Shown: one piece after another, positions 27,135-52,044 of the stretch | Position numbering within the stretch: position 1 is the first letter of the stretch | How the letters are laid out: each line of letters opens with the position of its first letter | IMG/VR virus record: IMGVR_UViG_3300045988_115582 | From: a virus | Reading direction: 5' to 3' (one strand) | DNA length: 58,613 nucleotides | The notes under the pieces: model-generated | What the model was told of the DNA's origin: nothing | Databases searched by the model: none | What the model saw: the letters and a program-made list of their open reading frames with translations, nothing else | Position numbers and translations under genes: made by a program

Positions 27135-27245
27135 ATTATAAAGCATAAAAATATAAAAATCAATACAAAAAATTGTACAAAGTACAAAAAAGTTATTGAC
27201 ATAACAACTACAATGTACTATTATTAAATCGTACAAAGTACAAAA
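27135..27245. promoter_or_regulatory. Lysogeny switch: divergent promoters plus two direct 15-bp operators
   Basis: Leftward promoter TTGATT-17-TATAAT (27163-27135). Rightward promoter TTGACA-17-TATTAT (27196-27224). GTACAAAGTACAAAA at 27175-89 and 27231-45. Confidence 0.7.
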
Positions 27246-27270
27246 TACATTTGAAAGTGAGGTGGTCAAT

Positions 27271-49725: not shown

Positions 49726-49758
49726 AAAAAAGAGACTGTAAAAAGTCTCTTTTCTTTT
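49726..49758. terminator. Bidirectional Rho-independent terminator
   Basis: Stem AAGAGACT/AGTCTCTT, with an A-run on one side and a T-run on the other. Confidence 0.75.
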
Positions 49759-49859
49759 CCAAAATGTAGCTATTAAAATAATAGTTAAATATAATTTATT
49801 GTTTACATCCCAAAATGTGCTATTAAATACAATTACTAAATATAAACTATTATTTACAT
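49759..49859 (-). CRISPR. crRNA-like mini-array: handle-only start, 21-nt spacer, one full 30-nt repeat, 20-nt spacer, truncated repeat
   Basis: Minus strand reads ATGTAAAT | AATAGTTTATATTTAGTAATT | GTATTTAATAGCACATTTTGGGATGTAAAC | AATAAATTATATTTAACTAT | TATTTTAATAGCTACATTTTGG. It can equally be read as two imperfect 51-bp direct repeats. Confidence 0.45.
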
Positions 49860-49866
49860 CGTAATC

Positions 49867-49899: not shown

Positions 49900-50601
49900 T
49901 TAAGCTAAAAATATCGGATTATCGTTATCAAAAAGATTGCTGAAAATTTTAGTGTCTTTATCTAGATAACGGCATCTCACTTTATTAAACTTCCTAAATC
50001 CTTTTTTAGTATATTCATATTTTTTATTTATATTATATGATATGCTACACAAATCGTCAGGTACAAAAATCTCAGGAACATAAGCATCTTTTTTTAATGT
50101 CCCTATTTCGTTCTTTTCTTGTAACTCAACAATTTCAACATCATCAACTCGTAACAAATCTTCATAACGCCCTAATGACAAAAATTTGCGTGGAAATTTC
50201 AAAGATGTATAGGCCACTTCAAGATCATCATCATCTACAGTTTGTATATAAATTTCAAGCTGTAAATTTGCTAAATAATAAAATGTTTTAGGCGATTGAA
50301 CCCAGCCGGTATAACTGCTGTCATTTTCATCTTCAACAATTACTGACCATCTTTTTTTAATTTCTTCTGTGATTGTCTTAAATTTCGCCCCACCTTGCCA
50401 CTGCATTTTCAGCTCTTTATTTATATAACCTTTTCCCGATATAAAAAAATTCATGTCATGGTACTCATGCCAGCCGCAGGCGTTATGTACCATACCTGAC
50501 ACTGTTGAAAATGGTGGCAGGGGTAAAATATCAGGAGAGCAAGACAAACTTACAGGAAACCTTGCGGTTTCCATGTAAGCGTTTAATTTAACTGCTTTCA
50601 T
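49900..50601 (-). CDS. cas5: Cas5-like RAMP protein (subtype I-B-like), solitary
   Basis: MKAVKLNAYMETARFPVS...ILPLPPFSTVSGMVHNACG and LSLGRYEDLLRVDDVEIVEL resemble Cas5 N- and C-terminal signatures. The start is moved to the ATG after AGAGG. Confidence 0.55.
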   Translation of the reverse strand: MKAVKLNAYMETARFPVSLSCSPDILPLPPFSTVSGMVHNACGWHEYHDMNFFISGKGYINKELKMQWQGGAKFKTITEEIKKRWSVIVEDENDSSYTGWVQSPKTFYYLANLQLEIYIQTVDDDDLEVAYTSLKFPRKFLSLGRYEDLLRVDDVEIVELQEKNEIGTLKKDAYVPEIFVPDDLCSISYNINKKYEYTKKGFRKFNKVRCRYLDKDTKIFSNLFDNDNPIFLA

Positions 50602-50611
50602 TGCTTTACCT

Positions 50612-50803
50612 CTATTCTGCTTCACATTCAAAGCCTAAAAGAATATTTTTATAAAGTTCTTCACTGATATTCTCTTCTAAAAGAGGTTTTCTGTTCTCAA
50701 ATCCGAGTTCCGCATCAAGTGAAGCGTCAATTTCTTCTAATGCTTTTTCTCTACTAAATCCCAACTCCATAACCTCATTTAATAAATCAATAGTTTTTTT
50801 CAT
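50612..50803 (-). CDS. Small acidic protein (63 aa), anti-defence candidate
   Basis: ATG after AAAGGTG. Very acidic (EEIDASLDAELGFEN...EENISEELY..ECEAE). Confidence 0.55.
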   Translation of the reverse strand: MKKTIDLLNEVMELGFSREKALEEIDASLDAELGFENRKPLLEENISEELYKNILLGFECEAE

Positions 50804-50864
50804 AATAGTCACCTTTTAACCTTTCTTTTATTTTTTATAATTATATCTTTTATAGTGATGTTTT

Positions 50865-51062
50865 TCAATTACTGCTTCCCATATTTTTACCCTCCACTTC
50901 TTCAATATAAATTCTTTCTGTTTTGCCGGTGTCATCATCTTCATAGACTCCGCCGAAGTCGTCCCACCAACTTTCGGCACCTCTTTTGTTATATGTCTGC
51001 CCTCCAAGGAGAACTGTACCACTTTCTGTAACCAATCTGTATTTTTTGTTATCTTTCTTCAT
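50865..51062 (-). CDS. Small acidic protein (65 aa), anti-defence candidate
   Basis: ATG after GGAGG. WWDDFGGVYEDDDTGKTERIYIEEVEG. The overlapping ORF 50828..51022 is rejected. Confidence 0.55.
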   Translation of the reverse strand: MKKDNKKYRLVTESGTVLLGGQTYNKRGAESWWDDFGGVYEDDDTGKTERIYIEEVEGKNMGSSN

Positions 51063-51108
51063 AATCTTGTACCTCCAATGTTTTATTTGTATTTCTTATG
51101 TTGTATAT

Positions 51109-51234
51109 ATAATACATCATTGTGCACTAATATTCAATGGGCAAAATATACAAAAATGTATTAAATAATTATGCAAAATACACAAAAATGTACAACTTAA
51201 AATACTTGACATATAATACATAAAATTATATTAT
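51109..51234. promoter_or_regulatory. Divergent promoters with two palindromic operators
   Basis: Leftward promoter TTGAAT-17-TATTAT (51137-51109). Rightward promoter TTGACA-17-TATTAT (51206-51234). ATACAAAAATGTAT at 51148-61 and TACACAAAAATGTA at 51179-92. Confidence 0.6.
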
Positions 51235-51259
51235 ATAAAAAAGAAAAGAGGTGCTATAC

Positions 51260-51487
51260 ATGGAGAAAAGAAAAAATACTTATAAAGGAAATATATCTTA
51301 TAAAAGATTGTGGGAAACGATGGAACGACGCAATATAACAAAAATGAACTTAAAAAATGACTTTAATCTATCACCTACGCTAGTCAATAGATTAGTTAAA
51401 AATCAGAATGTGAGTGTTGACACAATAATGTATTTGTGTGACTGCTTAGATTGTCAGCCTTGCGATATTTTAGAATATGTAAAGTAA
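51260..51487 (+). CDS. XRE/Cro-type HTH regulator (Aca-like position)
   Basis: LWETMERRNITKMNLKNDFNLSPTLVNRLVKNQNVSVDTIMYLCDCLDCQPCDILEYV. ATG after GAGGTG. Confidence 0.7.
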   Translation: MEKRKNTYKGNISYKRLWETMERRNITKMNLKNDFNLSPTLVNRLVKNQNVSVDTIMYLCDCLDCQPCDILEYVK

Positions 51488-51540
51488 ATACAAAAAAGTG
51501 TATTTTTAACATTGACAAACAATACACAAAGATGTATAAT
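51488..51540 (+). promoter_or_regulatory. Consensus promoter TTGACA-17-TATAAT with two more copies of the palindromic operator
   Basis: ATACAAAAAAGTGTAT at 51488-503. ATACACAAAGATGTAT at 51522-37 overlaps the spacer and -10 element. Confidence 0.65.
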
Positions 51541-51588
51541 AAGTTTATCAAATAAAGAAAGGATGGCAATGCCGCAAAGGTGAATGTT

Positions 51589-51843
51589 ATGAGAAGAACA
51601 GAATTAAAAAATGAAAATGTAATCTACACAGGAACAGCAAGAGAAATCTTGAGCTTGTGGAAAAATTTGACAGAGCGTCACATGGATGATTGGAGTTTTA
51701 TTCTTAATACTCCAAAAATGAATATGAATAAAAATTACGGTCTTTATGTGGATCTAGTAGATGGCTTAGACGAGCCATACAACAAGCCACAGCTTGGCAT
51801 TTTAAACGCAAGTGGTGTACTTGAAGCATTAAATTTAATTTAA
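51589..51843 (+). CDS. Hypothetical protein (84 aa) under the operator-controlled promoter
   Basis: ATG after AAGGTG. Confidence 0.55.
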   Translation: MRRTELKNENVIYTGTAREILSLWKNLTERHMDDWSFILNTPKMNMNKNYGLYVDLVDGLDEPYNKPQLGILNASGVLEALNLI

Positions 51844-51886
51844 TTAAAACCCGCCCCGGAGGGACAAGGGCAGAAAGGTGGATATT

Positions 51887-51967
51887 ATGACAAGTATTGA
51901 AGTTTTAAAAATGGATGGATGCACAGAAAAAGCCGGTTACAGACTGGGGAATAGTCGAACATGGTGA
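51887..51967 (+). CDS. Possible 26-aa peptide
   Basis: ATG after AAAGGTGG. A terminator follows. Very short. Confidence 0.25.
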   Translation: MTSIEVLKMDGCTEKAGYRLGNSRTW

Positions 51968-52017
51968 AAAAACATATTATATCCAGTATTGTTTATAAAA
52001 ATAAAAATTGATTTTTT

Positions 52018-52044
52018 AGCAGCTTGAAATATAGCTGCTTTTTT
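52018..52044 (+). terminator. Rho-independent terminator
   Basis: Stem AGCAGCT/AGCTGCT followed by TTTTTT. Confidence 0.7.

Follow-up and report, generated by a model that had tools for sequence, protein, structure and literature searches.

We propose, with a probability of roughly 70%, that a small HTH_26 protein encoded by a temperate Lachnospiraceae phage is an autoregulating Aca-type repressor, which together with its cognate operators forms an exchangeable cassette in an anti-CRISPR/anti-defence hotspot. The gene lies between the DUF4417 gene and terS in the stretch of viral DNA analysed here (58,613 nt, hereafter the window). The preliminary description of this DNA had presented the region as a self-contained 2.3-kb island bounded by terminators. 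Both terminators do fold, but comparison with relatives indicates that the locus is a mosaic hotspot of independently exchanged modules. Its control elements are the following:

49726..49755, minus strand: left terminator, a stem-loop with a U-run that ends leftward transcription (-12.8 kcal/mol, z = -2.3; conserved in L001, L056, L057 and L059)
50840..50868, minus strand: internal promoter before the 63-aa gene, TTGAAA-17-TATAAT (11/12 consensus positions), without operator
51109..51137, minus strand: PL, the leftward promoter, TTGAAT-17-TATTAT
51113..51126, no strand: putative operator 1, TACATCATTGTGCA, degenerate, within the PL spacer
51148..51161, no strand: putative operator 2, auxiliary, upstream of the PL -35
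51179..51192, no strand: putative operator 3, auxiliary, upstream of the HTH promoter -35
51206..51234, plus strand: HTH promoter, TTGACA-17-TATTAT (11/12 consensus positions)
51216..51229, no strand: putative operator 4, TACATAAAATTATA, right half degenerate, within the HTH promoter spacer
51260..51487, plus strand: HTH regulator gene, 75 aa, HTH_26 (Cro/C1-type, VanU-like), pI 9.0
51488..51503, no strand: putative operator 5, auxiliary, directly 3' of the HTH stop codon
51512..51540, plus strand: P3 promoter, TTGACA-17-TATAAT (12/12 consensus positions)
51522..51537, no strand: putative operator 6, within the P3 spacer and overlapping its -10
52018..52039, plus strand: right terminator (-12.3 kcal/mol, z = -2.8)

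The putative operator is a 14-bp palindrome, TACA-N6-TGTA, with half-sites 10 bp apart. Four palindromes had been reported at window coordinates 51148-61, 51179-92, 51488-503 and 51522-37, and all four are exactly there; the count is however six, the sites at 51113-26 and 51216-29 having been overlooked. The coordinates given earlier for the promoters, the HTH gene and the small ORFs were equally accurate, as was the placement of the last palindrome over the spacer and -10 of the perfect P3 promoter. A loose version of the pattern matches 18 times in the 58.6 kb, with 4 of the 18 matches falling inside 390 bp where about 0.12 would be expected. All three promoters have a common layout, with one operator in the spacer and one auxiliary site 31-37 bp upstream, these spacings not all being in helical phase. 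The two overlooked sites align with better preserved ones elsewhere: operator 1 with perfect TACAC(A/T)A..TGTA sites of 14 relatives, and operator 4 with TACA(C/T)AA..TGTA of relatives. The spacer sites 51113-26 and 51216-29 are likely the repressing sites of the divergent promoters; this phage has both in degenerate form, and its repression may therefore be weak. The position of operator 5 is shared with 29 of 38 relatives, and a P3 promoter with its spacer operator is found in 30 of the 38. Another candidate, TACAAAAAATTGTA at 27164, was discounted as an HTH operator and sits among the differing GTACAAAGTAC repeats of a CI-like region.

The HTH gene and its operator travel together. The HTH recurs in 52 loci (36 viral and 16 Lachnospiraceae genomic), and in almost all of them the same 14-mer, with the consensus AATACACAAAGATGTAT, lies on its flanks; cultivable lysogens with the HTH cassette include Parablautia intestinalis D8-82 and Eubacterium sp. 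14-2. The strict 14-mer occurs 181 times in 38 distinct control regions of this kind and 10 times in the 298.5 kb that flank them. On both sides of this constant HTH the cargo is hypervariable and falls into 128 protein clusters. The preliminary description had suggested comparing related phages for a conserved HTH gene amid swapped cargo, which is what we observed; conversely, cargo is also kept while regulators are swapped. Indeed, sister phages carry the same cargo operon paired with other regulators, and the spacers of the same promoters then hold a repeated motif particular to each regulator. One constant scaffold made of the -35, the -10 and the leader is shared by at least six regulator types, and its spacer differs from one type to the next: it reads TACACAAAGATGTA beside this HTH, AAGGCACAAA beside one RHH-like protein and ACGCACTTAT beside another, and ATTCTAATATTAGAAT, GCATAGTTTAATAA or TACATTATTTTTAATGTA beside three further regulators. 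Such regulator-for-regulator exchange on a fixed scaffold is a natural swap experiment, in which the predicted operator and the regulator co-vary. At the individual promoters, the -10 box and 5' UTR of PL are conserved with the cargo while its spacer and -35 travel with the regulator; both hexamers of the HTH promoter are conserved among relatives, and the P3 scaffold is conserved also in phages with other regulators.

A small Cro/C1-type HTH protein with divergent promoters and multiple operators could also be a Cro-like or CI-like switch protein whose palindromes are immunity operators, and integrases do adjoin some of its relatives. We consider this reading very improbable. The phage has a second regulatory region at 26.7-28.2 kb, with a CI-like repressor (HTH_3 and Phage_CI_repr), a divergent small gene and a Bro-N/ORF6C antirepressor, indicating that the HTH protein is not the main lysis/lysogeny switch. 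In addition, the divergent partner of the HTH gene is cargo instead of a repressor gene, and sister phages of the same lineage replace the HTH by unrelated regulators while the rest of the genome is unchanged.

The HTH protein itself is small, stand-alone and single-domain (Pfam HTH_26, 1.9e-14). It matches the NCBIfam VanU model at 2.2e-9, below cut-off, with 37 bits against an equivalog cut-off of 150. Its nearest solved structure is 3TYR, the only PDB sequence match at E <= 1, and no chain named Aca was among the PDB matches. Relatives in GenBank phages are all below 44% identity and none is annotated as an Aca; a DNA search of GenBank phages with the region gave no match. Bifunctional HTH proteins that are both Acrs and autorepressors are known from Listeria, and the protein might accordingly be a DNA-binding anti-CRISPR, CasPR- or AcrIIA1-like, silencing both its own locus and the cas genes of the host. 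Acrs that bind DNA and shut down cas genes have been described (bioRxiv 10.64898/2026.02.23.707548). The chances of this seem very small to us, because the Pfam scan found neither a CapR nor an AP2 domain in the protein and because, in four HTH-carrying host genomes, the prophage locus is the only place where operator-type 14-mers cluster. Outside it these genomes hold no operator clusters, the 14-mer frequency being that of a reversed-pattern control, which gives no hint of targets in the host.

The Aca-type reading also draws on the genes that surround the regulator, which are:

49759..49860, minus strand: crRNA-like mini-array, two 51-bp units with direct repeat D1 and their own promoter (49895-49867), without HTH operator and hence listed as context to the regulated genes
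49900..50601, minus strand: cargo gene for a 233-aa orphan homologue of Cas5b
50612..50803, minus strand: 63-aa gene, encoding an acidic three-helix protein, partner of the viral Cas5
50865..51062, minus strand: 65-aa gene, the first of the leftward operon
51563..51575, plus strand: small hairpin in the leader, preceding the RBS of the 84-aa gene and weakened in the window copy
51589..51843, plus strand: 84-aa gene, cargo driven by P3
51887..51998, plus strand: frame-shifted remnant of an 83-aa gene

The two small proteins of the leftward operon had been called strongly acidic. This holds for the 63-aa protein (pI 4.30; 17 D/E against 7 K/R) but the 65-aa protein is only mildly acidic (pI 4.82; 13 D/E against 10 K/R). 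Homologues of the latter are 53-58 aa long, and the window copy reads 7 codons further, beside a 561-bp deletion; in sister phages, 101-aa and 56-aa genes lie between the 65-aa and 63-aa genes. Conservation of the small ORFs, raised earlier as a point on which the proposal could fail, was found for all three: the 63-aa family comprises 1191 clusters at 90% identity (pN/pS 0.19), the 65-aa protein has 9 clusters at 70-88% identity (pN/pS 0.15), and the 84-aa protein (pI 5.24) has 10 clusters at 75-100% identity (pN/pS 0.23). Such pN/pS values of 0.15-0.23 indicate that they are under purifying selection and hence real genes. Of the 5 pairs of the leader hairpin, 3 show compensatory changes among 7 sequences (window alone, z = -0.25). 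The possible 26-aa peptide proposed behind the 84-aa gene turned out to be the 5' piece of the 83-aa gene, which a deletion has disrupted and whose 3' end follows out of frame; an intact copy is at L058:3225-3476, where two blastn pieces flank the gap of about 140 bp.

None of the 63-, 65- and 84-aa proteins has a match in Pfam, PHROGs, NCBIfam or PADLOC. AF2 models of the 63- and 65-aa proteins (pLDDT 92 and 85.6) gave no significant fold match, with best Foldseek E-values of 3.6 and 0.34 in the PDB and 1.1 in BFVD, and a sequence comparison of the 84-aa protein with the PDB gave none. Thus, no described Acr family or fold was matched by the three proteins, the 84-aa protein being compared by sequence only. 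By analogy with AcrIB4, the 63-aa protein was also considered as a mimic of the Cas8b C-terminus or of Cas11, which was rejected at the sequence level: hhalign against L. eligens Cas8b gave a probability of 0.1%, and essentially all of the 114 cluster representatives of the family are short (31-283 aa), a single 640-aa match being weak and fragmentary. In all ten places looked up, the 63-aa gene is followed by a Cas5 homologue with a 4-nt overlap; one exception to this pairing was seen, in L058. The internal promoter before the 63-aa gene is conserved in all relatives, including L002 with its different upstream genes. As this promoter lacks an operator, cas5 may escape HTH control.

The Cas5b homologue matches TIGR01895 over its full length (5.1e-20; residues 1-220 of the protein, 1-206 of the 217 of the model) and PADLOC Cas5b at 1.3e-20, its 72 bits staying below the 96.7-bit TIGR01895 cut-off for a true Cas5b. 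By pairwise identities it does not group with Listeria AcrIB3 in preference to host Cas5b, its identity being 37% with Cas5b from the cas operon of L. eligens and 25.7% with the Listeria phage copy. This low identity to the Listeria copy suggests that the window Cas5b is probably an independent co-option. Next to it, the mini-array has spacers of 21 nt. In Butyribacter intestini (L096), a 66-nt stretch situated about 210 nt 5' of cas6b-cas8b matches it at 91%, and it also has matches upstream of the type I-B operon cas6b-cas8b-cas7b-cas5b-cas3b of Lachnospira eligens (L078). A search of 596 Gb of genomes with an exact 17-mer of the repeat returned 70 single matches, about the number expected by chance, and no CRISPR array; a blastn re-screen of these 70 again singled out Butyribacter intestini and Lachnospira eligens. 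An Rfam scan of 49.4-52.7 kb gave chance-level matches only.

Elsewhere, the cargo of the same HTH gives a further link to CRISPR antagonism. In L005, the first gene behind the HTH and its operators encodes an AcrIC5-domain protein (PF22147, 8.2e-20, 71 bits against a gathering cut-off of 27), and L004-type loci encode a protein with AP2 and a weak CapR match and with the CxCxC...CxC pattern of CasPRs (bioRxiv 10.64898/2026.02.23.707548). The Acr/Aca-like layout noticed in the preliminary description is thus supported by the recurrence of the HTH, by regulator/operator co-variation, by the Cas5b (AcrIB3 class), AcrIC5 and CapR/AP2 cargo and by the host look-alikes of the mini-array next to type I-B cas genes. 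A broader reading is that the HTH is the general repressor of an accessory ("moron") hotspot, silencing whatever small genes adjoin it, of which a minority are CRISPR-active. Few of the 71 cargo proteins scanned are annotated, and among these are Ant/KilAC antirepressors, proteins of the HNH, GIY-YIG and endonuclease VII types, and also a transposase and integrases. Only some loci have the Cas5 pair, the AcrIC5 domain or the CapR/AP2 protein, and in L028, L038 and L043 the HTH cassette is located between lysin and integrase. With such antirepressors or homing endonucleases, the anti-CRISPR label may be too narrow for the hotspot. Nevertheless, we regard the broader reading as rather unlikely, because specific functional homology, where the cargo has any, suggests CRISPR antagonism, because small acidic proteins are numerous in the cargo, and because the layout is that of published multi-operon Aca loci; it also departs from the Aca reading in label and not in mechanism.

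From the anatomy, conservation and co-variation of the locus, we infer the binding, direction and timing of an Aca-type regulation as follows. On phage entry, PL, the HTH promoter and P3, all strong and sigma-70-type, would fire, PL giving the 65-aa gene, with transcription continuing in the direction of the 63-aa gene and cas5, and P3 giving the 84-aa gene, products whose anti-CRISPR activity is putative. As the HTH protein accumulates, dimers would settle on the 14-bp TACA-N6-TGTA sites. The site inside the 17-bp spacer would block RNA polymerase and the second site 31-37 bp upstream could permit cooperative binding, so that all three promoters would be turned down; in lysogens the same repression would hold the locus quiet. 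Since separate promoters without an operator serve the 63-aa/Cas5 pair and the mini-array, HTH control of these would be only partial.

More tentatively, and with the balance against it, the regulator cassettes could act as anti-defence immunity groups. The repressor of a resident prophage would then shut down those acr promoters of an incoming phage that match it, and selection would favour swapping the regulator with 10-14 bp per spacer while the -35, the -10, the leader and the cargo stay fixed. Separately, and at the same doubtful level, the 63-aa protein, the viral Cas5 and the crRNA-like RNA could form a three-part decoy of the type I-B Cascade, in which the 63-aa protein would be an undescribed, near-obligate co-factor of the viral Cas5. 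The pairing of the two proteins, with its 1191 clusters, points to such a co-factor, and the available portions of the work on viral cas genes make no mention of a partner gene. Beyond this, the HTH/operator pair could be used as a flag for harvesting anti-defence candidates from metagenomes, the 128 cargo clusters beside the HTH being a start. The six or more regulators on one scaffold offer a ready panel of putatively orthogonal repressor/operator pairs, and their swaps a clean natural test of control-element exchange among anti-defence loci.

Among known systems, the closest characterised sequence relative is VanU, the regulator of the vanG operon (3TYR/3TYS), also a 75-aa single-domain Cro/C1-type HTH protein, whose genomic context is unrelated to that of the window HTH and whose family cut-off the latter does not reach. 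For the Cas5b homologue, the counterpart is AcrIB3, a viral Cas5 homologue from Listeria that becomes part of a defective type I-B Cascade and represents a published Acr class (Katz et al., bioRxiv 10.1101/2023.06.24.545427). Both are orphan Cas5b homologues on a mobile element, in a small-gene cluster with a regulator, and their identity to host-type Cas5b is alike (about 37% here, 38% reported for AcrIB3). Unlike AcrIB3, the window Cas5 comes nearly always with a 63-aa partner and, here, with a crRNA-like mini-array. This mini-array resembles the Cracr/CreR-like crRNA mimics (Liu et al., bioRxiv 10.1101/2024.10.29.618823) in its 21-nt spacers, its position beside Acr-type genes and its host look-alikes directly upstream of type I-B cas operons; it differs in being paired with a Cas5 homologue, Cas5 going unmentioned in that preprint.

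For the regulator, the comparison is with Aca1/Aca2, Aca11/Aca13 and Aca14 (Feussner et al. 2026, PMC13551039). As in those loci, small cargo genes accompany a small DNA-binding regulator, here putatively autoregulating; inverted repeats, here putative operators, lie across strong promoters of its own and adjacent operons; and HTH regulators can be replaced by RHH-type ones. Multi-operon Aca control and HTH-to-RHH replacement being published (PMC13551039), the HTH protein is a new example of an already known control type, not a new kind. Unlike in Aca loci, it is transcribed alone, divergent from and upstream of the cargo, instead of last in an acr-aca operon; six operators follow a regular spacer-plus-upstream order, and the cargo consists only of candidate Acrs. 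It belongs to an HTH_26/VanU-like family of Lachnospiraceae phages, which may be separate from Aca1-14. The HTH family probably represents undescribed Aca-like regulators of gut Lachnospiraceae phages, provided with an operator consensus of their own.

Re-inspection of the sequence found every element of the preliminary description in place, including its four palindromes (51148-51161, 51179-51192, 51488-51503 and 51522-51537). A loose version of the palindrome matches 18 times in the 58.6-kb window; four of the 18 matches crowd into 390 bp, against an expectation of about 0.12. The count of four had to be raised to six when the divergent control region was aligned against 15 related loci, which carry perfect sites at two positions that are degenerate in the window. 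The elements of the control region are the following:

51109-51137, minus strand: leftward promoter, TTGAAT-17-TATTAT (promoter match)
51113-51126, inside the leftward-promoter spacer: putative operator, degenerate TACATCATTGTGCA (alignment with the 15 related loci)
51206-51234, plus strand: promoter of the HTH gene, TTGACA-17-TATTAT (promoter match)
51216-51229, inside the HTH-promoter spacer: putative operator, degenerate TACATAAAATTATA (same alignment)
51512-51540, plus strand: downstream promoter P3, perfect TTGACA-17-TATAAT (promoter match)
51563-51575, plus strand: leader hairpin of 5 bp, loop AAT, directly ahead of the RBS of the first gene after P3

Adding the two degenerate sites makes the layout regular: all three promoters hold a predicted site in the 17-bp spacer and have a second one further upstream, at centre-to-centre distances of 35, 37 and 34 bp.

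The HTH gene (51260-51487, plus strand) encodes a 75-aa protein (pI 8.98) that belongs to Pfam HTH_26 as judged by profile search (1.9e-14) and whose closest characterised relative is of the VanU type. Relatives sharing 53-83% identity are encoded on 36 IMG/VR contigs, and further ones by 16 genomes or MAGs, all of them from Lachnospiraceae or closely related bacteria (Parablautia intestinalis, Acetatifactor, Eubacterium sp. 14-2, Dorea, Blautia). Almost all are bordered by a common 14-mer, typically with four copies upstream and two downstream. Strict TACA-N6-TGTA sites (consensus AATACACAAAGATGTAT) number 181 in 38 distinct control regions, against 10 across the 298.5 kb that flank them, and 30 of these 38 regions have a downstream promoter with a site in its spacer, indicating that the HTH protein and its predicted operators are a conserved module. 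An action on host genes, in the manner of CasPR, is argued against by four host genomes, in which operator-type sites elsewhere do not form clusters. Activation of the late genes is likewise argued against, both by the position of the operators in promoter spacers and by a terminator before terS.

The HTH gene lies between the DUF4417 gene and terS in most loci, including the window, and between lysin and integrase in some. The genes on either side of it fall into 128 clusters, many of them small and acidic, so the cargo changes across related loci while HTH is kept, the pattern for which the preliminary description had suggested looking. In one locus, the first gene behind HTH and its two downstream operators (L005:1142-1519, plus strand) encodes a protein of 126 aa in which the PF22147 AcrIC5 domain is complete (residues 66-117; 71 bits, cut-off 27). 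The AcrIC5 domain is fused there to an N-terminal domain that is also found alone, as a 67-aa protein (L060:385-588) adjoining a homologue of the 84-aa gene. Another cargo protein, of 169 aa, has AP2 and weak CapR matches and bears the CxCxC...CxC pattern known from CasPR proteins, which silence cas genes (bioRxiv 10.64898/2026.02.23.707548). CapR/AP2-type proteins with this pattern and CasPR architecture are encoded at L004:4683-5189 (plus strand) and L001:5970-6614 (minus strand), and one such protein is the second gene behind HTH in the commonest locus type. Antirepressors and homing endonucleases are also annotated beside HTH.

The converse arrangement was seen in sister phages belonging to the lineage of the window (L001-L003, L056-L059). 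Their DNA is 92-93% identical over the stretch that runs from DUF4417 and takes in cas5 and the 63-aa gene, and the 65-aa gene is common to them too, along with its -10 box and 5' UTR. As divergent regulator, L057 and L059 have a second HTH_26 protein, L056 has an RHH-like protein of 65 aa with repeats CATAAGTGCGTGACA, and L001-L003 and L058 have an RHH-like protein of 66 aa with repeats TTTGTGCCTTA. In every one of these phages ATTGACA, TATAAT and the leader of the downstream promoter are preserved, and the spacer holds the motif of the adjoining regulator. The exception is L057:3509-3600, and also L059, where an RHH-type spacer motif AAGGCACAAAG stands behind the second HTH_26 regulator; this suggests a regulator swap stopped short, a recent replacement having left one promoter mismatched. 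A second phage lineage (L061-L070) has an equal design with three further regulator/operator pairs. Of the in-silico evidence for the palindromes being operators of HTH, this co-variation of regulator and spacer is the strongest. That HTH could instead be the main switch of the phage is argued against by this free exchange among sister phages and by a distinct pair at 26.7-28.2 kb, a CI-like repressor and an antirepressor. In the intergenic region of this CI-like repressor (27150-27260) lie repeated GTACAAAGTAC motifs, which differ from the TACA-N6-TGTA sites and are likely the operators of that repressor.

The leader hairpin occupies the same place in L001, L002, L056-L058 and L060, whichever regulator is present, with compensatory changes in three of its five pairs (GCGGC/GCCGC, CAGTC/GACTG, CAGCC/GGCTG); the second lineage has another hairpin, GCCCC-AGAA-GGGGC, at this position.

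The three small cargo genes of the window are real, as their pN/pS values of 0.15 (65-aa gene), 0.19 (63-aa) and 0.23 (84-aa) indicate. The 65-aa protein (pI 4.82) has homologues of 53-58 aa at 70-88% identity, and the 84-aa protein (pI 5.24) has homologues at 75-100%. The 63-aa protein (pI 4.30) belongs to a family of 114 clusters at 50% identity (1191 at 90%). Structure prediction, proposed in the preliminary description, gave confident models, a three-helix structure for the 63-aa protein and a small alpha/beta fold for the 65-aa protein, neither of which had a match in structural searches. The supposed 26-aa peptide proved to be a fragment, the 5' part, of an 83-aa gene whose intact copy is at L058:3225-3476. 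In the window this gene has lost about 140 bp at a short repeat; what is left of it (51887-51998) is frame-shifted, and the 26-aa ORF and an out-of-frame 27-aa ORF represent the two ends of the 83-aa gene.

The cas5-like gene was correctly recognised, its 233-aa product being a Cas5b homologue (TIGR01895, 5.1e-20 over full length; PADLOC, 1.3e-20). At all 10 of the places examined, the gene of a 230-aa Cas5 homologue follows the 63-aa gene with a 4-nt overlap; in L058 the 63-aa gene is present without any cas5. At L022:5370-5687, the Cas5 homologue is truncated to about 105 aa beside an intact 63-aa partner. A comparison of the 63-aa protein with host Cas8b showed no similarity. In Butyribacter intestini, a site some 210 nt ahead of cas6b-cas8b (L096:5689-5754) is a 91% match to a 66-nt stretch of the mini-array (49759-49860, minus strand). 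Lachnospira eligens has shorter matches in front of its cas6b-cas8b-cas7b-cas5b-cas3b operon (L078:5156-5218). These operons are of type I-B, and both species are candidate hosts and targets of the phage lineage.

One promoter before the 63-aa gene and another before the mini-array are free of operators, so cas5 and the mini-array RNA would be expressed in part independently of HTH. The terminators proposed to bound a self-contained island are supported by folding. The island itself is, on sequence comparison, a mosaic of separately exchanged modules and not one mobile unit. Between its 65- and 63-aa genes the window lacks 561 bp, with genes of 101 aa and 56 aa, that are present in sister phages. 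Three cargo genes share a near-identical translation-start context, AAAGGTGnnTATTATG (50797-50812, 51574-51591 and 51873-51889), which may mark junctions of cassette exchange.

The predicted multi-operon layout, with its candidate anti-CRISPR cargo, matches a published kind, as the preliminary description had it: there are reports of Aca proteins whose sites lie on several neighbouring operons and of the swap of HTH for RHH regulators (PMC13551039), of Cracr RNAs (bioRxiv 10.1101/2024.10.29.618823) and of viral Cas5 homologues (bioRxiv 10.1101/2023.06.24.545427). Cas5 of the phage and Cas5b of the L. eligens operon share 37% identity, close to the 38% reported for AcrIB3, a validated viral Cas5 homologue. 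What is new here is an HTH_26 regulator family with a defined putative operator, a very clear regulator-swap series on a single scaffold, and a near-constant 63-aa partner protein of viral Cas5.
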